IMG/VR virus record: IMGVR_UViG_3300033463_000015
Strand: one strand, 5' to 3'
DNA length: 64,000 nt
Origin: a virus
Taxonomy: Duplodnaviria > Caudoviricetes
Shown one piece after another: positions 1 through 45,224 of the stretch. The notes under the pieces were generated by a model, which ran no database searches, was not told where the DNA came from, and saw only the letters and a program-made list of their open reading frames with translations. The stretch's first letter is position 1. The number at the start of each line of letters is the position of its first letter. The translations under genes and the position numbers were made by a program.

Positions 1-3000
1 CGCCTTGAATATCAATACCTTCTAAAGCGTCTAAAACGTCTTGTGAAAGTAAACTTAAATTTAATTCTCTACCATTAACAATATCTTTAGAAAGATTTGT
101 TAACTATGAATTAACTGCATTTCTAAGTTGCTCATCTAGTTTAATTAATCCATCAATATATGCAGAATAAGCATTCTAATATTCAAAAGTATTCTTAAAT
201 GCGTCAAGATCCATGTTATTAGCATCCGCGACTTCTCTAATAAACCCTTCCCAATCAATAATTCTTGTATTACCAAACATATCGGTACGGAAATAATTAC
301 CAAAACCCCTACCTGTCGCTTCAGAAATTCCGGTCCAACCATAATGCCCTTGTCCATCCGTTTTTAAATATTCATCTAAATTTAAATTAAACGCATTAAA
401 TAGATTACCTAAATTATCAAAACTTAATGCCGCACCAGAAGATAATGAATCAATTAATGTATTATTACGGCTTGCCGCATTAGTTAAAATAGAAACATAA
501 GCCTAATTTCTCTCTGTTAAAGTAGAAAAATTATCAGCATTAGCATCAAATACTTCAATCGCCGCTAAAACATAATTTTCTCCAGCCATCATTGCTCGAT
601 AAACTGCTTGCTGTTCTAAAGTCATATTATTAATTAAATCATTAGTGGCATCTGAATATAATTCAGTATTACCAGCTAATATTTCAGTAACAGCCGTTGA
701 TAAATTCTATGATGCAGTTTTATTAGCCTCACGCTTAAATCCATTAATAATTGCCTATCGTTCCGATTCGTCTGCGTACCCAAACCACTATAAAGTATGA
801 TCTAAAATAAGTTCCCAAGTAGACATACCAAGTGCTGCCGCTTGTTGTTCAACAACACCCATATCAAATTCGCCATTACTGTCTGTCCAAGTGATTTCAT
901 CTTTTATTGCATCTATTGTGGATGCTAATTGAGTCAGTAATGTCTACTAGGCTGAAGAAATAGTGCCACCAATAGCAAAATCCTACCAATTAATTCCTTG
1001 ATAGAATAAGCTTGGCATAAATTGATTAAATGCTGTTTCTTCAGCAAGAGCATTATCTAAAGCTTGCGTAGCGTCATCAGCTGCGTCATTATAATATTTG
1101 GCAAAATCTTCCCAAGTTGCCGCAGTGCCTTCAGCCAAAGAATTTAAAAAATCAATAGCTAAATTGATCATATAGTTATAACTGTCATCATCATCAGTTA
1201 TACCCATTAAATTTACCAATGCCTATGCTTGCTCTGCTTTTGTGCCACTTAGTTCATCCGAATACTCGTCTTCATTAAGTTGTCCAATAGTTGTATAATA
1301 ACCCCTAATTTCTTCTGCGCGCCGACTAGCATCTGCCAAACGCTAATTATTCGCTGCAATTGCACTCTACAAACCGCTAGTTGTATAAACAAATCTACCT
1401 AACTCAGCATCGTATTCAAAAATAGTATCAAATGTATCTTCATCAGATAGATATGCCTACATTTTATTAAATTCTTCTATAGCTTTATCTAAACTTAAAC
1501 CGGTCTTATTTGTATTAATTATAGATTCTAATTCTTTAGAAGCATTTAAAATCTAAGTAGTTAAATTTTGCGCAACGGTATTAGCATTAAATACTAAAAT
1601 GTTTTCTGCTTCTTGTAGCTATTCTAAAATAGCTATTAATGCTTCATTATCTTCTAAATCATGATTTTGTGCATAAATCTCAATTGTTTCATAAGCGTTT
1701 TGAATTGATTCTAAATCAGTAAATTCAATATTTGTAATAGTTCTATATAATGCTTGTGAATCGATACTATCTAAATCTACCATTGCTTCTGATATTCTTT
1801 CTAAAATAAAAAGTCTATTCTATGCTAATTGTACATATCCATTTTCTGCTAATTCATTAATTGCTAATAATTCTTGTCTAAAATAATCTACATACTATGA
1901 AGCAATATCTTTATTATTTAAACGATCTATAATATTTCTCGCAGCATTATATGGTAAGAGTGTATTATCTTCATCTCTAATAAAAGTAATTAATAAATTT
2001 AAACCGGAAAATTCATCATTAAAGAATCCCTATCCTATATCATTAAAAATTCTTAATTTATCTAAATTAACCTATGCACTTGTATTAAAACGTTCTATTA
2101 AACTATTATATATATCGGCGTAATTATCAGAAAACTATTGAGGACTAATACCAATACTTAAAAGCATCTCATCAGCAGAACGATAAGAAGCAAGTGATCC
2201 AGAAGCACTAATGAATTCCTATAAAGTATCATCAGCCAATGTACCGATCCAAGAAAATAATTGACTAACTAACTCAGCTTTTTTAGACTAAAAATCTTCA
2301 CTATTATTTGTAAGCCACGTAGCTGCATCAGTTGCACCAGCTTCCTACGCGGCAAGCTCTAATCCTTCTGTAATTATAGAAGAAAAAATACCGCTATTTT
2401 GAATAAGAGAGGCCTAGGCGGACGTAAAATTACTTAATAATGCCTATGTATTAATGGCCTCCTACGCATAAGCTAAAGTTACCTCTTTATTTAAAACTTC
2501 TACCTATCTATTATATGCTTCAATCTACGCATTTAACTATTCATATCCCTAAACTAACATATCATAAGTTAAACTACCTGTAGCATTCCAACCAAAATAT
2601 GCTCGTGCCCATTTACCCTCATATTCACCAGAAGGCGTAGAGATATTCAAGGTTTCAGCATTCTCTTCTAAAAAATTATTTAATTCTGATTCTAATCGAG
2701 TTTCGTCATAATTAAATAATGGTTGCGAATTATTTGTTAATTCAGTTAAAAATGGAGTTAAATATCGTCCAGATACTAAATTACCATATATACGAGTATC
2801 ACTTGTAAAACCTGCTGGTTGAAAATAACCCCTACCATATGATGTTCCACCAGGCCAATTTTCTGAATTATTAATATACTATAATAATCTTGTATAATCT
2901 TCAACTGTATAATGCTCATTCGGATGACGATTATAATAAGTAACAATTTCTTTAATTGTTTCATTTTGAATCTAATCTACGTTTTCACTTAAAAATCTTA

Positions 3001-6000
3001 AAAATTGCTTCATTTCTTCGGCTATTTCGTAAGCGCTGCGATCATCATCATAAGATACACCAGAATAAGCTGTAACTGTAATATTACTATTTGTAGAAGC
3101 ATCTCCTCTTTCACTCTAAAGTATGAGTGGAGTATGACTGCGTGCTCCCATACTATTATTTTGTGGAGTTAAATACTACTAACCTAGCATTTTCGGACCT
3201 AATGAAGTTCTAAAATTATCTAAAATCTAAACCTATAATTCTCTTGTTCTTTTCTCTGCTACTGCAGCATCACGAGTTGCTTTACTAGACTAAGCACGTG
3301 CAGCAATTAATGCCTACTCTGCTTTTTCTACATCAATAATAGCATTTCCAGCTTCATCGTAAGATGAAATTAAATTAGGATATTCAGATGCCATAGTTGC
3401 CATAGCGTCTTTATAAGCCTACATATCTTCAGTAGAATTATACATAGCACTACGTAACTATTTAATATTATCTATTGATGATTGTAAACCTGTTACTTTA
3501 GCCTACTATTTTAATGCCTCATCACTAGCTTCCTAAGCTTCCTACTTAGCGTTTTCAATACGTTCAGCTAAAGTATAATTAGCACCATCAATAATAGCGC
3601 CTAAACCGCCAACTAAAAATCCACCAATCGCACCTATAGCAGCGCCCCAAGGACCAAAAGCCATACCCATAGAAGCTCCTGTAGCTGCACCCGAAATTCC
3701 ATTACCAATACCTGTCCATAATTTATTTGCTTCAATATCATCATCACTTTTAACAGTTAATGAAGCGCCATATGCAGTAAGTGCCGTACCAACCAATCGG
3801 CCGACACCAGATAGAAGACTTGTCCATTTCATTAAAGTTTCATGACCTTCCCATGAAGTTAATCCTTTCAATCCTCCAGTCTTATTGGCACCAGCGTCGC
3901 CTTGTGTCGCGGCAGTATGATGTGCTAATGCTTCACTATCTCTGTTTAAATGTAAAATATTCTTAAGCCAAGCTCCAACACTTCTATGGGTTGCATTAGT
4001 TTGCTATTCTTGTGCTCCAATGCTATTTACCTTTGTCTAAGCTTCCTAAACTGCTAAAGCTGCACTTTTTAGCCTTGCGACATGTTCTTGCTCTATACCC
4101 TTTTTATTTTCAATATGTCCAGATATTTCTGCAATAATAGTATCTAATTCTTGCTATTTTACGTTTAATTCAGCCTAGGCAGCCTATTGTGCCTAAATTC
4201 TTGCATTCGTTTCCTATGTGGTTGCTCCCTAAGAAGCCCTTGCAGCATTTTCTTTATCTTTATCAGCCTATGCCGCGCCTTCCGCTGCAGTTTTTAAGCC
4301 ATCAAGAACTTGCGTTACTTGTGTACTTTGCTAAGATAAACTATTAAATGACTATAATAATTGATCAATGGTTTGACCATATTGAGTATCAGGATTAACA
4401 TTATATTCAGCCATAAGTTCTTGTCTACCTTCTACTGTCTATAATGCACCTTTCTATTGATATTTAATTATTTTATCTAAAATATTCTCTCGTGTAATTC
4501 CATTATCTTCCAATGTTGGATTTGCATTCATTATTCTTCCAGTAATATCTTGACCTGTAGTTGTAATTGATGCCTAAATCTAAGTCTATAAATTTTGTAA
4601 TTTACTAGTATCAACTTCCAATTCAACTCGTTTAGTAACTGTTTCTTTTAACATCTATGTTAATTCTTTAGCTTTTTGTTCAGCTTCAGTTACATTTAAA
4701 TCAACTTTACTTTTTACTTGAGCAATTCTATTTTTTAAACTATCAATACCACCTTTAACGCCCGTTCCAAAACCCATTAAATTAATTAATGTTGGTAACG
4801 CTCCATTTTTTAATCCTAACTTACCAATAGTATTTAAAATTCTAGTAAGCCAACTATAAAAATCTTTTAACCCTTTTTCTAAATGTAAATCCAAATAAAT
4901 CTAAGAAAAAGCATTCTTTAATTGCTATGCTTTAGTTTCTAATGAATCCATAGTTTTAGCAGTTTGCACAATACTAGCATTCTATGAATTATTAGCAGTA
5001 TCAATAGCTCTTGATAATTCATCATAGTTAGAAACCAACGCAATAAAACGAGATTGCTGTCTATTACCAGCCATAATGGTAGCAATATAACGCTATGTAT
5101 TATTATCTAACGTATCCCATTTAGCCGCTAATTCTAAAATAACATCATCAAAATTACGAAACTGACCTGCAGAATCTTTAATAGAAATACCAATAGACTT
5201 TAATGCAGTATCTACTTTGTTAAAAGCAGCTTCTTCGCCATCAATATTAAGTAATTGATCCGGCGATGCTTTCATTTCACCGTAACGAGAAATGATTGAC
5301 TTTAAAGCAGAACCAATATTCTCTGCAGATTCACGAGTGGTTTGTACCATAACAGAAATAAATGCAGAAGTGCTTTGTAATGACATCCCCACGTTAGCCG
5401 CAGAAGATGCAGTCTTTTCCATAGCATTAGCAATTTCTGCAGAACTAACAGCGAAGTTCGCAGCCAAAGCGCTATATGTGTCAGTAACAGACTACGCTTC
5501 AGTCATTTCAATTTTAAATGCACGAATAGCTACTGTCATAGCATCTGCAGCTGCACTATACTCAAGTCCAGCAATTTTACCCATCTTTAATGTCTCAGTT
5601 GTTAAAGACATTACCTAAGCTGTCTATAAACCCTATTGATAAAAAATCTATGAAACCTTATAAACATCAGTTGTAGCAACGCCAAATTGTTGCGCCATTT
5701 CAGTATATTGCCCAATCTTACCCCATAATTCTTCCTATGTCATATTAGTAACAACAGCGATATTCGTAATTGATTTATCCAATTCTTTAATATTATTAAA
5801 AGCATTACGAATAGCTTGCGTTACCTTGCGCATTATAGCATAAACACCAATATATCTTGTAATAAAACTAGATATACCTGATAATTTATTAGTTGTATTA
5901 TCTAACTATTGTAACTATGCACGACCTGCAGCCGCAGCACGCCCTAAATTAGCAATTTCAGCACTTGCGCGATTATATAAATCTGCCATACCAGGCATCG

Positions 6001-7189
6001 CGGTTGCACCCTATAATAACGTATCCTATAATGAAGCTAAAGAAGCTTCTGGTCCTTTTAATGCATTTTCTAATTCTTGCTATTTAGCCTTTACCAAATC
6101 TTGCTATTCAGTAAAAGCTTTAAGCACACGCGCCGCCGCTTCATACTTTGCAGTAGTAGTATTAACCGCAGCTTCAGAAGTATCACGTTCCTTTACTTGT
6201 GCCTAATATTCCTAAGCACTTGCGACTAATTCGCTATAATTAATATTACCACCAAAAATTTTAGCGCCATATTCTTTATCAGTAACAGCTTTTCTTAACT
6301 CTTCAGTCATTGTGCTGCCAATTGCTTTAGCAGCCTCTCGTAAACGTCCACGAATATCATTTAACTATGAAGGTTCTAATTTAAATCTTTCGGCAAGCTC
6401 TGCAAAAAATCCATCAGCGCCCTTAAATCCTTTCTAAAAGCCACTCCAACCAGTACCTTCTGCATCAAGCTTCATATATTTACTTAACATCTGCTAAACT
6501 TCATTATATTTTTCAGCACTTGCTGGTAATTTATCAAAACCTTTAGTTAACCAATCCAATGCTTTTAAAGCATTTGAATTCTATCGTCCTTGAGCATTCG
6601 CATCTACTAACTAACTGTTCTATGCAAATTTACTCTTCTAAACAAGCAACTCATTATTAATCTAATTTAATTTAGTCTAAATAGTAGTATAAATTTCATC
6701 ATAACTTTTTTCTAACATTTTTGCCGCGGTGCCAGAGCCGAGCATAGTAGATAAATCAGCCGTAAAATTAGTATTTTTAAAAAGCTCCTATTTCTATGTT
6801 TCTTTAAAAGAAGTGAATCCAGCTTTTAACTCATTAATTTTAGTAGTTAATTCAGTTATCTAATGCTGTACACTAGTAGGAACTTTTAGATCTTTAAATG
6901 TTACTCCTGCAATACTACTTTTTACATGATCTAAACTGGTTTCAATTTTATGAGCCTCACGCTCTACTGAGCTAAAATCAGCTTCAGTTTTAAAAGCGCT
7001 TTTAGAACGCAATTCTAATTGATCTAAAGCACGTAAAACAGACTACAATTCTTTATTAATATTTTTACCTACAACAGAGTCTGGTAAAATTTTAGTTTTA
7101 CTTAAATCTCCTAACTATTTAGCGACTTCACGTAAATTAGTTATCTACGCAGTAATCGGTATAGTTACACCATTCTAGGTACCTGCCAT
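1..7189 (-). CDS. Tape measure protein (runs off the window; >2396 aa, TAG=Gln)
   Basis: ATG at 7189 after AAGGAG. ORF-track fragments 983-1219, 3542-3871, 4655-4894 and 5093-5467 share one frame and end in TAG. TMP motifs TRESAENIGSALKSIISR and (Q)RYIATIMAGNRQQSRFIAL; glycine-rich hydrophobic segments. Confidence 0.9.
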
Positions 7190-7216
7190 AATATTTCATC
7201 TCCTTTTTCGCAAAAT

Positions 7217-15379: not shown

Positions 15380-16039
15380 AGCTTGTTCTCCTCCTTTTGC
15401 ATTATTTTCAGCTTCTTCAACTCGCTCTTTCAAAGATGACAAAAGTGAAGAAAACTTATCAAATTGATTTGTATAATTTTCATCATTTTTAGAAAAGAAT
15501 GATGAAACAGAAAAACAAGGTTCATGCTCACCAATTATACAAAATCCTAACATATTCGCGGTTTTGTATATATAATAGTATTCACCCTATATTTCTCCCC
15601 AATCTCCTGTAATGCTATTAGGGTCTAGCTCCATTGATTGATGCTAGCCGGCAATTTTTTGTGCTTCAGAAAAATATTCTGAAAATAGCACTACGGAGAA
15701 AATAGCATAATCGCGTGCGACGCCATCGGTATCTGTTAAAGTTTCCCACCCAAGAAAACTCTCAACATAACCATAACCATTGGCTAATGTTGGCCCAGTA
15801 TGACTAGCCCAAGACTATGTCTCCGGATCAAAAAAGCCAACGACAGGTGTATTGCCACGAGTAGCGCTAGCAATAAGCTGGTCCGCGACAGCATCTGTAA
15901 TATAAGAGCCGTTGCGATTAGCATACTTAGTAAATACAGCAACTTTTAATCGCCCCATATTAGGTTCTGTATTAGAAATAGCGGTAATTGGTGAGTTCAT
16001 AACCTAGACATCAAAATAAACTGGTATTTTTCTATCCAT
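14744..16039 (-). CDS. Prohead protease-scaffold fusion (431 aa, TAG=Gln)
   Basis: Fragments 15815-16000 and 14744-15553 are in frame. Protease-like N-terminus (NRNGSYI, QSMELD, GFCIIG.HEPCF) and an acidic coiled-coil C-terminus. Confidence 0.8.
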
Positions 16040-16050
16040 AATTATCCCTC

Positions 16051-17601
16051 TCATCCAGCGGCCGCAATATTAGCCTGGGTTTTTTCCGATTTCTAACCAT
16101 CGGGAAGTTCAGGGCGACCACCTGTATTATTAGTGTCATCACTTGACTTCTATGTTGTAGTATTTTGCGCTGATGAAGAAGAATTTCCTGTCTATTGGCC
16201 AGGAATGCCAGACGTAGTATAAGAAGATTGTAGAGGAACCATCTTAATAGACATTTCAAGAATATCATTCTCAAAGTGCATTAAGCTTAATTGATCACGC
16301 TGCTTTACACCCATAGCTACACCCGCAAGCATCTTGGAATAACCATACTGAGCTCCACGGAAATAGACACCTTGCATTTCTTCTCTATTGAATACTGTGA
16401 TTGGTAAAATCTCAAAGTCAAATGTAAGATTAGTGCGCGCAAACTTATCATTAATATGGAACTTAATCCAAGTCTCATATTCATTTAGATAAGCATTCAT
16501 TAATGTTTCATCCTTCTTAATAGCATAGTCTAAAGCTGCACTACCATCAGGATTGAATAGAATATGACTACGGCCAAGTGCGTCCCAAGCATTATTCTTG
16601 TATTTTTCAATACGGTCTGCAGATTGAGTTGCGGCAGAACTGTCTTGTACATTCTCTAACTTGGCTTCACCGAATGTAGTTAATACATCAACAGTATCTA
16701 AGTCTTCCAACATATGCGCTACTGATGCATGAATGTCAGCAACTTCTTCAAGTTCAAATACTAACTAACCATTACTATCAATTGGCATTTGCTCAATTAA
16801 TAATTTATGTAGCTCATTTTCATCACGCTTTTCTTCTCTCTTTACAGCGTCAGCTAACTTCTTCAATTCAGGAATACTACCAATTAGAGGCGGCACACCG
16901 TCAGTGGCAAAACTGAAACATACCCCTCCGCCGCCAGCCTCTATCATCACCCACGGGTCGGTTTGCTTTTTCCCGCGAGTCCATTGCTTCCACGCAACCT
17001 AAACAACTGCTGGGAAAGTAGAAACTACTTCATTTCTCACTTTCTCATCTGGAAACTTCATAAAGTAATTTAGATTGAATTCCAAGATATTTAAGTTATT
17101 GAAGTCCTTAAAACGAGTGCGGCAATATTGTACTGGTAAATCCTAAATAGTAACCTTATCACCTAAAGTTCTTAAAATCCCATAATATATACCATTGATT
17201 AACCATTCAGTAGTAATATGAGATAATGTATTCGGCAAATCTAAGTTCTCAACAAATTCACAAGCTTTGTAGAATGCCTTCATTAACTGAGTCTCTGAAC
17301 CCTTACCTTCCTGATAAACAGGAATCACAGCAGTGTCATATAGAGGTAAATGAGCTAAGAAATCAATGTTATTCCTATAATTGCTATTAGTTCTATAATA
17401 ATAACGAGACAACTCACGCAAAGATATTGTATCGCCTGAACGAATAATTTCTTCAATTTCTTCCAAGGAAAAATCTTTTTGAACAGGCTCAGCATTTCTA
17501 TACCATCCACGATAATAAGAACGATCATTCAATGGCGCCCTTTCAGCTATTAGTCTTCTATAAGATTTAAAATTTCGTTTTTCATCGCCCAAATTACTCA
17601 C
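16051..17601 (-). CDS. Portal protein (516 aa, TAG=Gln)
   Basis: Three ORF-track fragments are in frame. GTGA overlap with the terminase stop; C-terminal GGRP motif; position after the terminase. Confidence 0.85.
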
Positions 17602-19385: not shown

Positions 19386-20310
19386 TCAAATCACCGGCAA
19401 GCTCATCCTCGCCCTCATACTCTATATCGGCAGTATCATCAAACTCAACCGCCTCATTTTCAATTTCTTCCAGCCGCTCGGTCATATTATAACGAGCCTT
19501 CTTATCTTCTACTTGTTCAGCAAAGTTGCCTTCATTTATAACTAGCCGCTTCAAGTAGTTCTAAATATTCTACATCATAAAGTCCATTGAATCTTGCGGC
19601 TCGGTATGCCATTTGGGGTGCCAACCCTTTTTACCATAATAGACCATAAGTTCACCAACTGACTCAAAGTCGGCCGCATTTTTAGCGTTGTTAGCCTCAA
19701 ATTTACAATTCTTAATAATGTCTGAAATGGCATCCATATCCTTTTTTACATCTAAGCCTTCACGCATAGTTTTCTTCGCGCGCAAGGTAAGCTCGCAGAG
19801 GTCTCGCGCACGCTACTTTAAGATTGGGGTTGAAACATTTTGAGTGGCAATAATCTAGTTATAATAATCCTCCAAGAATAGAAGTTCTTCTTTTGTATAA
19901 GAAGGAGACCAATCTTTCTTCAATCTCTTCATTTTTGATTCTGAAATTTTTTCAATTTCGTCGTCTATGGTACCTTCTTCGCGAGCTAGCCGCCAACGTT
20001 CATTTTCGTCAGCCCAGCTTATGGCCGCGTATCTATCATCAAGTAAGGTATTGAAATAAGCCGATAGCGTATGATCTTTATGTATCTCATACAACTAAGT
20101 CCATTTATTAAGGTCCAGCGGCAAGTCAAGATAGCGGCATAGAGCGTCTACCTCGTTGAGGTTGTCTTGGTGAATTAGGGTTTCTAAACAGCTTGTGCAA
20201 ATAAGAGAACGATGGCCGGGAAAGAATGGAGATTTTGTTGGCTAAAAGGCATACTCAGGTTTGTCCTGCTTACATTTTAAGCACTTGCGTTTCTTTATTT
20301 CGTTGGTCAT
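19378..20310 (-). CDS. Zn-finger protein, putative terminase small subunit (310 aa, TAG=Gln)
   Basis: N-terminal CxxC...CxxC; in frame with fragments 19855-20094 and 19570-19785; directly upstream of terL. Confidence 0.6.
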
Positions 20311-21583
20311 TTACACTTTGACCTCCTCTTTCAATACGGCGTAGTTTTTCACACTCTTTACAGTTAGAGGAAAAACCGTCCTTTCTGTTTTTGTTACACA
20401 CGAAAAATAGCTTATGACGTGGTAGCTTGCGGCCGCACGTATAGCATTGCTTTAGCTCCTCTTCAGGGGTTTCGCAAATGAGACGCCACTTTTGGGCTGT
20501 CTAAGCTAGTTTTTCGGGTATCTCTTTAGAAAGTATTGTACATAAGTAATTCTCAGTATATTTTAGGCCGTATTTAATCTATAAATTTTCAACAATTTCT
20601 CCATAAGGTACTCTATTTATTTTTTGTTCAAGTATGAAGTCGCGCACTTCGGACAAGTGAGCCATTTTGCGATAACGTTCAAAGTCCCATATTAAAGTGC
20701 GGCCGTAGGTATCTAGCTTCTCATACAATTGGTCGTAGAGTGGGTCATACCAGTTGAGTAGCGCCTTAATGTGAATGGGGTTCTCCCAATCGAATATATG
20801 TTCTCTTACAACCCAGCGCACTTCTTCTTCGCCAGTCCAAGGATTTATGCGTGTTTCATAATCATTTATATCTTTGGATATGTGACTTAGTAGCGCATTA
20901 TCTACACGCTCTTGCCATTGAGCGCGCGACATCCAGTATACGGAGTCACTAGTCCAATCAACGAATTGTTGCTTGGGGTGATCTATGCCGGGGAAATGGA
21001 GTTCGGGTTTATATACATCTTTTAAGTAGTATTGGTGTCGCCGCAAATCAACTAACCAATGCTTTAACTAATAAAGGCGATAATCGTCTTTAATAATGGG
21101 GGTTGTGTCGTCGGCGGGCAACTTGTCTTCATTTACCGCAATGGTATGTTCCATACGGTCAATGGAGTCCCAAAGTTCCTTCATGTATGGAATGTTGGAG
21201 TCACCTGGATCAATTAGTGCGCCAGTTTTCTTATCATATTTTGGCTTATTAATACAGGGTTTAGGTTTCTTATATACCGATGGTTTATGCCTCTATTCAA
21301 GGGTTTGCTGGTCGGCCATTGGGTTCTCCAGTAACTCATCAAGCGATAGCAACTTATCGTCCATAGTTTTAAATGTACTATACCTCTTATTAGAATCTGT
21401 AATTTCTTTGCGCTAAACCGTGTTTTGGTTGTTTTCGTCTTTACCATAAAGTATGTAGTTGGCCATTTGTTCAAGTTCGGTGTTACTTGGCACCTTCTCC
21501 AAACGGTCAAGTATATCATAGATAGCGGCGGTACGGTCAGTATCGCGCTCTATTGAGTAGTCAAGGGAATACGCTTTTTTCAT
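20270..21583 (-). CDS. Hypothetical protein with C-terminal Zn finger, first gene of the late operon (437 aa, TAG=Gln)
   Basis: ATG 21583 is in frame with fragment 20579-21046; C-terminal CYTC...CKEC. Confidence 0.7.
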
Positions 21584-21611
21584 TGAATTCAACACCTCTT
21601 TGCCTATGTAA

Positions 21612-21641
21612 ATTATAACATACGGGGCTTGGCGTTGTCAA
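21612..21641 (-). promoter_or_regulatory. Sigma-A promoter of the morphogenesis operon
   Basis: TTGACA-N18-TATAAT with extended TG on the minus strand. Confidence 0.7.
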
Positions 21642-23637: not shown

Positions 23638-23820
23638 TGCCCATTATACACTATGCCGGCGGATTTGTCAAGTACTTTTTTCTCCGCAGGACTTGCGGCC
23701 GCAGGCTCTTACGCTTGCGTATCTGTGTGCTAATAAAGAATGATTAGCTTATGTCAATTACTCTTTAACCAGTGCAGCGAGTTAGTTATGACTAACCATA
23801 TTACTATAAAAAAAGAACCT

Positions 23821-24258: not shown

Positions 24259-24528
24259 CAGTAGCACTTCCTTTCTTACAGCTTTATTATACAGGATAAA
24301 AAGCAAATTGTCAATAGGCAAATAAGAAAAAAAGGTATTGACATTCATACTCTTATGTGCTATACTTTAGTGGGAGAGTGAGATATATAGTTAGTTATGA
24401 CTAACTATTTTGCCGGCTTTATAGATCCGGAAGGAGTTAGTTATAACTAACTCATATTATCGGTCTCTCCTCCACCATCCCTATTATAAGCGATAATGTC
24501 AAGAATGTCAAGCCTTTTTCGCAGAAAG

Positions 24529-28179: not shown

Positions 28180-28277
28180 TTTTTTTTGGCCTCACCTGCG
28201 GGGACCGCGTTCGCAATTCCACACCCGCAAGGTTCATCGGCCTTACTCTACTCCATTGGCCTATCCCCTTTCCACGG
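28180..28277 (-). other. Amber minigene + hairpin element, copy 1 (ATG-GAG-TAG)
   Basis: Own promoter, AAGGGG RBS, ATG 28256, TAG 28250-28248; homologous to 37602-37700. Confidence 0.6.
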
Positions 28278-28470
28278 TCTCATTGTATCACAAGTTAGCC
28301 GATTTGTCAAGCTCTTTTTGCAAGTTTTTCAAAAACTTTTTTCGGCCGAGCACCAGGACAACATACCCCGATTAGTTATAACTAATCGCCGATCCGGATC
28401 AGTTAGTCATAACTAACTTTTGTGCCGGCATAAAAAACGGCGCCGGTGGATCCGGCGCCGGGGTGGAGGC

Positions 28471-31521: not shown

Positions 31522-31673
31522 CCGCACAACGCGCCGGCACAAAACGTGCCGGCATATTTTTCTGCCGGCGGCCGAGTTAGTTATAACTAACCGCCGCAGA
31601 TTGTTAAAAACTTAACAAACTTTTTTCGCCCTGGGTACTTGACAAAAGCGGAATTTTGACTATAATAGATAGT

Positions 31674-37362: not shown

Positions 37363-37601
37363 TTACCCTTTTTTCGTGCCGGCGCGGCAGTTAGTTATGA
37401 CTATATAACGAATCAGCCCTGGCGATTGTCAAAAATTTGTCAAAGAAAATTTGAAAAAATGCTTGACAGAAATCAAAATTGGAGTATAATTAATATTGTC
37501 AGGAGGGGACAGGGACACCACCCACGGAGGGCAAACCTCCGAGGCCGAAAAAAGTTCCGCGACCTCTTGACAGAGCGTCACACCCTGTGCTATAATAGGA
37601 C

Positions 37602-37700
37602 TGTAAGAAGGAGATGATACCCTTGGAGTAGAGAAAGGCCGCTAGCCGCGGATGGTGCGGAATTGCCAAAGCGCTTCCCTACCGCGTAGGCCGCAAAGAA
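37602..37700 (+). other. Amber minigene + hairpin element, copy 2 (TTG-GAG-TAG)
   Basis: Own promoter, AAGGAG RBS, TTG 37623 (or in-frame ATG 37614), TAG 37629-37631. Confidence 0.6.
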
Positions 37701-37828
37701 GAGCGCAAAATTTCCTCCGAAAAACCCTTGACAAACACCACAGGATGTGGTACAATAAAGATGTTCCAAGAGGGAACACGAAAACGATCGGGAAGGAAAA
37801 CCCAACCAAACCAGAAAGGATGTGCCCT

Positions 37829-38161
37829 ATGAAGGTTTCCACTCTGTCCGCTGTGTACAATGCCCTGACCAACTACGGCTATGCCGATGAGACCGTGATG
37901 GCTGACCTGTACGCCGAGATTCACAAGGGCGACAAGGTCAAGGCCGAAAAGGCCGCGCTGTATGAGGATGCCAAGCCCATCGTCTTCGGCGTCTTCGCCC
38001 TGACTGACAAGCCCCTGACCGTGGCTGAGATTTGGGAGAACATCGAGGGCAATGTCCCCGAGGGCTTCACCAAGTCCAAGCTGTCTTACGCCCTGACCCA
38101 CAACTGGGCCGATGAGGTCGTGAAGGTCACGGGCAAGACCAACGCCTACACCAAGGCGTGA
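37829..38161 (+). CDS. Family B protein
   Basis: LTVAEIWENIEGNVPEGFTKSKLSYALTHNW. Confidence 0.85.
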   Translation: MKVSTLSAVYNALTNYGYADETVMADLYAEIHKGDKVKAEKAALYEDAKPIVFGVFALTDKPLTVAEIWENIEGNVPEGFTKSKLSYALTHNWADEVVKVTGKTNAYTKA

Positions 38162-38196: not shown

Positions 38197-38271
38197 ACCC
38201 CATTGGCTCAATGGTAGAGCAACTGACTCTTAATCAGTGGGTTGCGGGTTCGAGTCCCGTGTGGGGTACCA
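38197..38271 (+). tRNA. tRNA-Lys(CTT)
   Basis: Acceptor ACCCCAT/GTGGGGT, anticodon arm ACTGA-CTCTTAA-TCAGT, GGTTCGAGTCC T-arm, encoded CCA. Confidence 0.95.
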
Positions 38272-38517
38272 GTGCCGCCTTAGGTGCGGCTTTTTATTTA
38301 TCGCAAAATTAGTTATATAGTTATAACTAACTCGCGGCCGGCACAAAATTAGGCTTGACTAACCAGGAGTTATGTGTTATAATAAGGGTGTCAAGAGGGA
38401 GAGAACCCCACCGCAAAAGGATGAGCGGGTGGCCCCGATTGGGTGGCGGACTCCAAAAAAGTCTTGACAAAAATCAAAAATTGATGTATAATGTAGAGGA
38501 AGAAAGGGGAAGAGACT

Positions 38518-45158: not shown

Positions 45159-45224
45159 TCTCCTTCCACCTCAGTTATATTATACATGAACTTTTAATGT
45201 TTGTCAAATATTAGGTGCGAAGAT

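Follow-up and report, generated by a model that had tools for sequence, protein, structure and literature searches.

The leader of the axe-txe system contains a two-codon mini-ORF that acts in cis and raises downstream expression, probably by protecting the mRNA, and both its reading frame and its distance matter (PMC8708949). The locus analysed here resembles that leader in having a start codon led by a ribosome-binding site (RBS), a single sense codon and a stop within the leader of a longer transcript. It differs in its stop codon, a TAG that the phage later decodes as sense, in the conserved hairpin behind this stop, and in a target that has a promoter of its own. The bar minigenes of phage lambda and toxic minigenes, as they are outlined in PMC2490762 and its reference 20, are also two-codon ORFs and are associated with drop-off of peptidyl-tRNA. 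With these our locus shares a strong promoter, an RBS and a start, one codon and a stop in a phage early transcript, and this two-codon layout (RBS, start, one sense codon, stop) is seen in six copies. In contrast to lambda bar, conservation extends well past the stop codon and the host is probably a Firmicute and not E. coli.

In mRNA decay of the Bacillus subtilis type, long stretches of downstream RNA are stabilised when a strong Shine-Dalgarno (SD) sequence or a stalled ribosome lies close to the 5' end (PMC3997798), and the 5' stabilisers of Firmicutes include the stalled ribosome of ermC and the STAB-SD of cryIIIA (reviewed in PMC3997798). In our module, too, a strong SD may lie close to the predicted 5' end, ahead of a long downstream RNA, in a presumed host with presumed RNases. 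According to the published model for recoded phages, the early phase uses the host code and the late genes are full of in-frame TAG (bioRxiv 10.1101/2021.08.26.457843; PMC9523058). Early genes compatible with the host code and TAG-rich late genes are also found in the phage considered here; early-region amber mini-ORFs, however, were not described in that work, and the module is not common to related recoded phages. In the case of the nut sites of lambda and the put sites of HK022, both arms of a divergent early region bear a copy, which consists of a linear block followed by a hairpin. The present module could be compared with these in having two related copies, one per arm, each with a conserved block and a hairpin. 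Unlike nut and put, it has neither boxA and boxB nor a put-like two-hairpin fold, there is one terminator downstream of each copy, and it is optional.

The element at the centre of this study, referred to as copy 1, and its paralogue are lineage-restricted leader modules in the phage early region. Our preferred reading, a tentative one, is that it may be an accessory leader driven by an upstream promoter, in which an amber mini-ORF would be translated with an effect in cis.

The early region and the anatomy of copy 1

The window, that is, the whole 64-kb stretch of DNA that was analysed, is part of a phage genome of ~174 kb in public records. Its outer parts (1-21.6 kb and 43.7-64 kb) contain long frames only when TAG is taken as sense, and the 97 in-frame TAGs in a frame of 2,398 codons at 1-7195 (-) require this reading. 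GC content is 32-42% in these TAG-using arms as against 50-57% in the early region, a sharp contrast within one genome. The centre (21.6-43.3 kb) is a divergent early region with promoters directed leftward below ~30.0 kb and rightward above. Promoters close to the sigma-A-type consensus (TTGACA, 17 nt, TAtAAT, with TGn in many) number ~45-48 between 21600 and 43300, about one for every 1-2 small genes, and a strict form of this pattern has 23 matches in the window against 0.01 expected. The early region is otherwise free of TAG: the stops of the 44 predicted early genes are TAA in 25, TGA in 19 and TAG in none, and none of the 44 contains an in-frame TAG. The TAG-free early genes and TAG-rich arms together fit the published recoded-phage model. 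The endolysin domains (SpoIID, NlpC/P60 and PG_binding_1) suggest a Gram-positive host, probably a Firmicute. No TAG-reading tRNA is present within the 64-kb window, and no suppressor tRNA (CUA) lies beside the module.

At the edges of the early region, a large gene with 5 in-frame TAGs (21595-20270, -) lies directly behind an early-type promoter at 21641, and a DEAD/ResIII helicase gene with 11 in-frame TAGs (45158-43770, -) directly behind another at 45207. Both genes would be transcribed by the host polymerase and translated in full only after the code switch. Proteins adjoining the early region brought up a large phage group in searches. One early protein of 102 aa (29066-28758, -) alone has over 4,000 homologues in public metagenomes (E below 1e-10), and marks a very large, mostly unannotated phage group. 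Units consisting of a promoter, a leader of 70-110 nt and the next promoter, with no ORF, are found at 31639, 32378, 34270, 37463, 41345 and 38355 (+), and further units of this kind at 23671 and 24511 (-). At the head of four of the ORF-less units stands TGTCAGGAGG, a strong SD with no start codon behind it, and this recalls 5' stabilisers of the STAB-SD type. An operator-like palindrome, AGTTAG-N6-CTAACT, lies beside terminators and promoters at 28380-28420, 24440-24480 and 37395-37412, is found also in L005, L015, L016 and L020, and is conserved in relatives. The amber codons of the two modules had been taken for the only RBS-led TAGs of the early region. This is not the case, as the promoter at 24511 is followed by a further example, ATG AGT TAG at 24455 (-); relatives do not keep this ATG, and the TAG falls within the palindrome.

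A terminator at 28460-28438 closes the preceding unit, and copy 1 therefore heads a new transcription unit. The components recorded at first reading, namely a promoter, an RBS, ATG GAG TAG and a GGCC-closed hairpin, are all present at 28310-28188 (-). The features of copy 1 and its surroundings, in the order of transcription, are:

28438-28460 (-), terminator-like hairpin with a T-run, of intrinsic type, ending the preceding unit
28310-28282 (-), own promoter of copy 1, consensus sigma-A-type (TTGACA, 17 nt, TACAAT with TGn extension)
28271-28265 (-), Shine-Dalgarno-like AAAGGGG, 8 nt before the ATG, of the same type as at the bona fide gene 26958 (-)
28256-28248 (-), mini-ORF ATG GAG TAG, read from the sequence, with TAG as codon 3
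28254-28238 (-), conserved block 1, GGAGTAGAGnAAGGCCG, 16/17 against copy 2, the sole variable site being a third codon position
28242-28188 (-), hairpin by predicted fold, with outer GGCC/GGCC, an asymmetric internal loop and an inner helix of 9-10 bp with a bulge
28223-28206 (-), conserved block 2 in the apical loop, TGyGGAATTGCsAAmGCG, reading Cys-Gly-Ile-Ala in the frame proposed at first reading
28187-28155 (-), A-rich tail, the UP-like tract of the next promoter and source of the Lys-rich read-through sequence
28154-28126 (-), proximal promoter of the downstream gene, by promoter match
28079-27939 (-), early gene of 46 aa with no assigned function, joined in frame by read-through from copy 1

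The SD of copy 1 is placed 11-17 nt past the -10 box and ~5-10 nt from the likely (predicted) start site. The promoter, leader and RBS of the module have the same form as those of ~45 neighbouring early units.

Copy 2 and the distribution of the module

The second module lies on the rightward arm, and its features are:

37567-37596 (+), own promoter of copy 2, by promoter match
37608-37613 (+), RBS AAGGAG, read from the sequence
37623-37631 (+), mini-ORF TTG GAG TAG, read from the sequence
37637-37692 (+), hairpin by predicted fold, with block 2 at 37656-37673
37728-37756 (+), proximal promoter of the 110-aa gene, by promoter match
37829-38161 (+), gene of 110 aa downstream of copy 2, co-transcribed with the tRNA
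38197-38271 (+), sole tRNA of the window, read as Lys (CTT) and conserved in L075

Over the core (37623-37695, +, in copy 2) the copies share 40/56 ungapped identities, against 29/56 for the next-best match to the core among ~128,000 positions of the window (mean 13.6, sd 3.25). An agreement so far beyond chance makes the paralogy of copies 1 and 2 real. The gapless alignment claimed in the first-pass annotation stands for this core but not for the 3' arm, where a 1-nt gap is required. Identity is concentrated in the two blocks (16/17 in block 1 and 15/18 in block 2), which in the window are found only at copies 1 and 2. Between the blocks nine of the 12 positions differ, and the stem arms, as had been noticed earlier, have diverged at these 9/12 and still pair. 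Recent conversion within the genome cannot account for the blocks, since all copies of the copy 2 type group against copy 1, and the two modules are old paralogues.

Four additional distinct copies of the copy 2 type were found in metagenome contigs, in L075, L077 (with identical contigs), L080 and L086. The contigs are short and 84-91% identical to the window, and their copies are all orthologues of copy 2. Every one of the six family members retains the RBS, in-frame start, GAG and TAG, with TAG as codon 3 and either ATG or TTG as the start codon, so that among these homologues there is none that lacks the start or the TAG. The leader exists in two versions, AAAGGGGATAGkCCAATG and AGGAGATGATACCCTTG; the former, copy 1 type (AAAGGGGATAGtCCAATG) is carried by L077, L080 and L086, and the latter by copy 2 and L075. 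From the RBS to GGCCG, a distance of 38 nt, copy 1 and the copy-2-type sequence of L077 differ at 2 sites. The copy 2 orthologues are 90-95% identical within the module, the same as in flanking non-coding DNA. Because the module is no more similar than its flanks these orthologues carry little power, and copy 1 against copy 2 is the sole deep comparison.

The nearest complete relative in IMG/VR, G001 (179.6 kb), is syntenic at 70-94% DNA identity and is TAG-recoded, with 5 in-frame TAGs in its homologue of the gene at 20270-21595. Both copies are absent from it. Its copy 1 slot (L009, contig 15940-16090) is occupied by an unrelated leader of 115 nt that has a promoter on either side and is closed by an inverted repeat of 14 bp (GTACCAAGGGAAGA / TCTTCCCTTGGTAC), which suggests that the slot needs a structured leader; at its copy 2 slot the extra promoter unit is missing. 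Upstream of copy 2 lies a nucleotidase-like gene, and neither block 1 (with up to 2 mismatches) nor the family covariance model found anything in ~58 loci around this gene or in five large relatives including G001 (3 complete genomes among the five). The covariance-model search that had been proposed in the first-pass annotation, conducted with nhmmer and covariance model R1 over ~0.78 Mb of related loci and the five large relatives, did recover the six known copies but yielded nothing more.

The module is absent even where the downstream protein is closer still, in L076 (93%) and L088 (94%), and also in L083-85. Since it is missing from contigs with a downstream protein of 93-94% identity, it is optional. 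It is bounded by repeated CyCTTGACA promoter junctions, and promoter-to-promoter recombination is probably how it is gained and lost. No orthologue of copy 1 was found via its neighbouring proteins, around which gene order is mosaic in relatives (L089, L090 and L092 have other orders). The 668-aa cluster mate P0147 proved to be an unrelated enzyme and a clustering artefact. Motif scans of IMG/VR with either block gave chance matches only (terminase; GC-rich bacterial-like DNA), a scan for the combined blocks in JGI metagenomes and 185k species genomes gave nothing, and a second metagenome pattern gave 7 matches of which one, L075, was a true orthologue. There was no match by blastn to GenBank phages, and no relative of the read-through peptides by tblastn or protein-database search. 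Rfam 15 gave no match at the gathering score, its best at E up to 10 being noise. Mimicry of host RNA (rRNA, 5S or CRISPR repeat), which was judged by eye, was dropped since Rfam gave no partial rRNA or other match.

This distribution bears directly on the role for which copy 1 had been put forward at first reading, as a possible sensor or driver of the code switch. The TAG-recoded G001, four other large relatives, the ~58 loci, L076 and L088 all lack the module; as both copies are missing from G001 and the four large relatives, the switch works without them. It is unlikely that the module runs the genetic-code change of the phage. A driver in trans could take the form of an RF1 trap, or of a minigene of the bar kind, which would tie up tRNA-Glu as peptidyl-tRNA and so damp host translation or termination, and the architecture does match that of the two-codon minigenes of the lambda type (strong promoter, RBS, start, one sense codon, stop). 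We nevertheless consider such a driver highly improbable, given that the nearest TAG-recoded complete relative and the four large relatives manage with neither copy. RF1 acts catalytically, and one or two mini-ORFs would therefore be a poor trap for it; moreover, conservation downstream of the stop codon would be left unexplained. Nor are amber mini-ORFs enriched in the phage group. Among the promoter-proximal mini-ORFs at 844 promoters of relatives the stops are TAA in 26, TGA in 38 and TAG in 10, and the idea of a general amber mini-ORF design in the group was rejected on this count.

Constraint on the hairpin and on the frame beyond TAG

The first-pass annotation had pointed to synonymous changes within the conserved parts. 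All four block differences between copies 1 and 2 do fall at third codon positions of its frame (hypergeometric p ~0.008, for blocks that were chosen post hoc and for four sites), and over all 51 ungapped columns third positions account for 7/14 differences, not a significant excess. The third-position changes suggest that translation may continue beyond TAG. As for the hairpin, 97% of cells pair when the copy 2 structure is applied to the six sequences, against 37-53% in slid controls. There are two double compensatory changes in copy 1 and changes of GC to GU in three orthologues, a level of covariation that was reached in 21/500 column shuffles. The stability of the hairpin is not higher than that of shuffled sequence (Z-scores of -0.59, +0.92, -1.59 and +0.69), and for an arm-against-arm duplex p is 0.015 in copy 1, 0.24 in copy 2 and 0.24-0.41 in the copy 2 type. 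Both the third-position and the pairing signals are weak; together they suggest a translated leader with a hairpin.

Variable stems combined with a conserved loop and 5' block are typical of protein-binding RNA hairpins, and GC to GU changes such as those of the three orthologues would be tolerated only in RNA of the module strand. It could be, then, that the module is a non-translated RNA or DNA element whose conserved loop and 5' single-stranded block bind some protein of the phage or the host, as a target site or as a decoy; its RBS and start would have been inherited from a gene leader. The presence of several more ORF-less, promoter-driven short units in the same early region, and of an unrelated structured leader in the copy 1 slot of G001, would accord with this. 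However, the module has no match to an Rfam family at E up to 10, it would give no discrete small RNA unless processed, there being no terminator, and deletions of 2-3 nt occur in the apical region of the orthologues. A binding element would also explain neither the third-position pattern nor the occurrence of an RBS and in-frame start in two different leaders, and we regard it as unlikely.

Read-through of copy 1 continues in frame into the gene at 28079-27939, as had been claimed, and gives a frame of 105 codons; one public record of the source genome calls this 105-aa frame as protein P0149. The corresponding frames have 69 codons in copy 2, 56 in L075, 34 in L077 and 35 in L086, and two of the read-through frames terminate inside the -35 box of the next promoter. 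In the orthologues the frame is lost after the Cys-Gly-Ile-Ala codons (~codon 16), the indels comprising a 2- or 3-nt deletion, a difference in loop length (CCCC/CCCCC) and a 1-nt deletion past the hairpin. With indels inside the frame and ends at 34, 35, 56, 69 or 105 codons, the read-through product cannot be called conserved. The copy 2 frame overlaps the next start (ATGA); since indels and differing frame ends mean that no full-length product is conserved, the overlap is a coincidence. Translational coupling at this ATGA, which is not conserved in L075, L077 and L086, was rejected. The read-through peptides read ..CGIANAVPAGE.., ..CGIAKALPYRV.., ..CGIATRPYRV.. and ..CGIATRPLPRR.., and the motif Arg-(Ala/Gly/Ser)-Pro-Pro is absent from them.

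These frames raise the question of a small protein gated by the amber codon, with an early-promoter transcript and a product made only after the code switch. This would be a basic Cys peptide, Met-Glu-X-[Ser/Arg]-Lys-Ala ... Cys-Gly-Ile-Ala, or in copy 1 the 46-aa protein with an N-terminal extension that brings it to 105 aa. The third-position pattern downstream of TAG, a frame that is open for 34-105 codons in all six copies, the calling of the 105-aa frame in a public record, and the two genes with in-frame TAGs that flank the early region behind promoters of this type would all be in favour of such a product. We consider it decidedly unlikely, however, as 1- and 2-nt indels separate close orthologues, neither the C-terminus nor the position of the stop is conserved, and residues 7-11 are wholly different between copies 1 and 2. 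Furthermore, the tail would be encoded mostly by UP-element and promoter DNA, and no related protein was found.

It might also be supposed that the module has no function, being the 5' end of a former small gene that was carried along with the promoter module by recombination, with TAG as an old inactivating change. An optional module bounded by CyCTTGACA junctions, where cassettes swap, could be of this origin, and the mosaic gene order around the neighbours of copy 1 (L089, L090, L092), the drift of the frame past codon 16 by way of indels, and the want of any peptide or DNA homologue beyond the six copies in the searches run would be expected of it. Neutral decay, however, should be even, and here blocks of 17-18 nt are near-identical while the arms have changed at 9/12 positions and still pair; the 38 nt from RBS to GGCCG, with so few differences between copy 1 and L077, likewise speak against a remnant. 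Such an origin seems improbable to us.

Possible action in cis and the code of the phage

The hairpin is followed by A9 and not by a U-run, and no terminator is listed at 28188-28242 or 37637-37692. The next terminators are at 27436-27410, 750 nt on from copy 1, and at 38274-38290, 600 nt on from copy 2, so that each module heads a multi-promoter unit and a longer 5' form of the downstream mRNA. No start codon occurs within 12 nt past the hairpin, as would be expected of one that sequesters an RBS; the next gene is 110-140 nt beyond the hairpin and behind its own promoter. Expression of the downstream genes does not depend on the module, since they are served by a promoter of their own. Pairing of a CCUCUU in copy 1, upstream of the next -35, with the downstream SD was rejected, as the fold is no better than that of shuffles and copy 2 has no equivalent.

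In the accessory leader that we prefer as a reading, host sigma-A RNA polymerase would initiate at the 28310-28282 promoter, and the 5' end of the transcript would carry a ribosome-binding site of the type used by genes together with a start codon. Under the standard code of the host, a ribosome would make Met-Glu and reach UAG 6 nt before the GC-rich hairpin. With no terminator in its way, transcription would pass the proximal promoter into the downstream early genes, which would gain a second, longer form of mRNA whose 5' end is the two-codon amber mini-ORF and the hairpin. A ribosome near this 5' end may protect or mark the long mRNA in cis, much like two-codon mini-ORFs and the 5' stabilisers of Firmicutes. 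Once TAG decoding is active, ribosomes would traverse the hairpin for at least ~16 codons, and the long mRNA may then be handled differently late than early, with its protection or translation altered. The use of the start, the stop at UAG early and its reading late, and an effect on the downstream mRNA are what we infer.

For a translated leader speaks the retention of the RBS, the start and GAG TAG across two leader versions and with ATG or TTG as the start, and the fact that other genes pair the same promoter type with in-frame TAGs is also in its favour. The neighbouring ORF-less units led by TGTCAGGAGG, with an SD and no start, fit the theme of 5' stabilisation. A pure mini-ORF model, on the other hand, leaves the conservation of the loop block unexplained. 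It should also be borne in mind that TAG as the stop of the mini-ORF represents a single evolutionary event, and its identity therefore has a prior of about one in three.

It is possible, although we are doubtful, that the module serves as a natural read-out of the code state of the phage, in that, on a transcript made early by the host polymerase, the frame is closed after two codons and is later opened by TAG decoding, so that either a product or the fate of an early mRNA would be specific to the late phase. Ribosomes that melt the hairpin would then make a short conserved N-terminal peptide (..Lys-Ala..Cys-Gly-Ile-Ala..) or, from copy 1, a 105-aa form of the 46-aa protein.

On present evidence, the module is an accessory of a single phage lineage, and any effect that it has is local. 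The passage of recoded phages from the code of the host to their own is still a model and not a mechanism. If it is true that the mini-ORF alters the fate of early mRNA once TAG begins to be read, the module would represent a compact expression timer built on stop-codon reassignment, and would offer a ready-made part for amber-suppression reporters.
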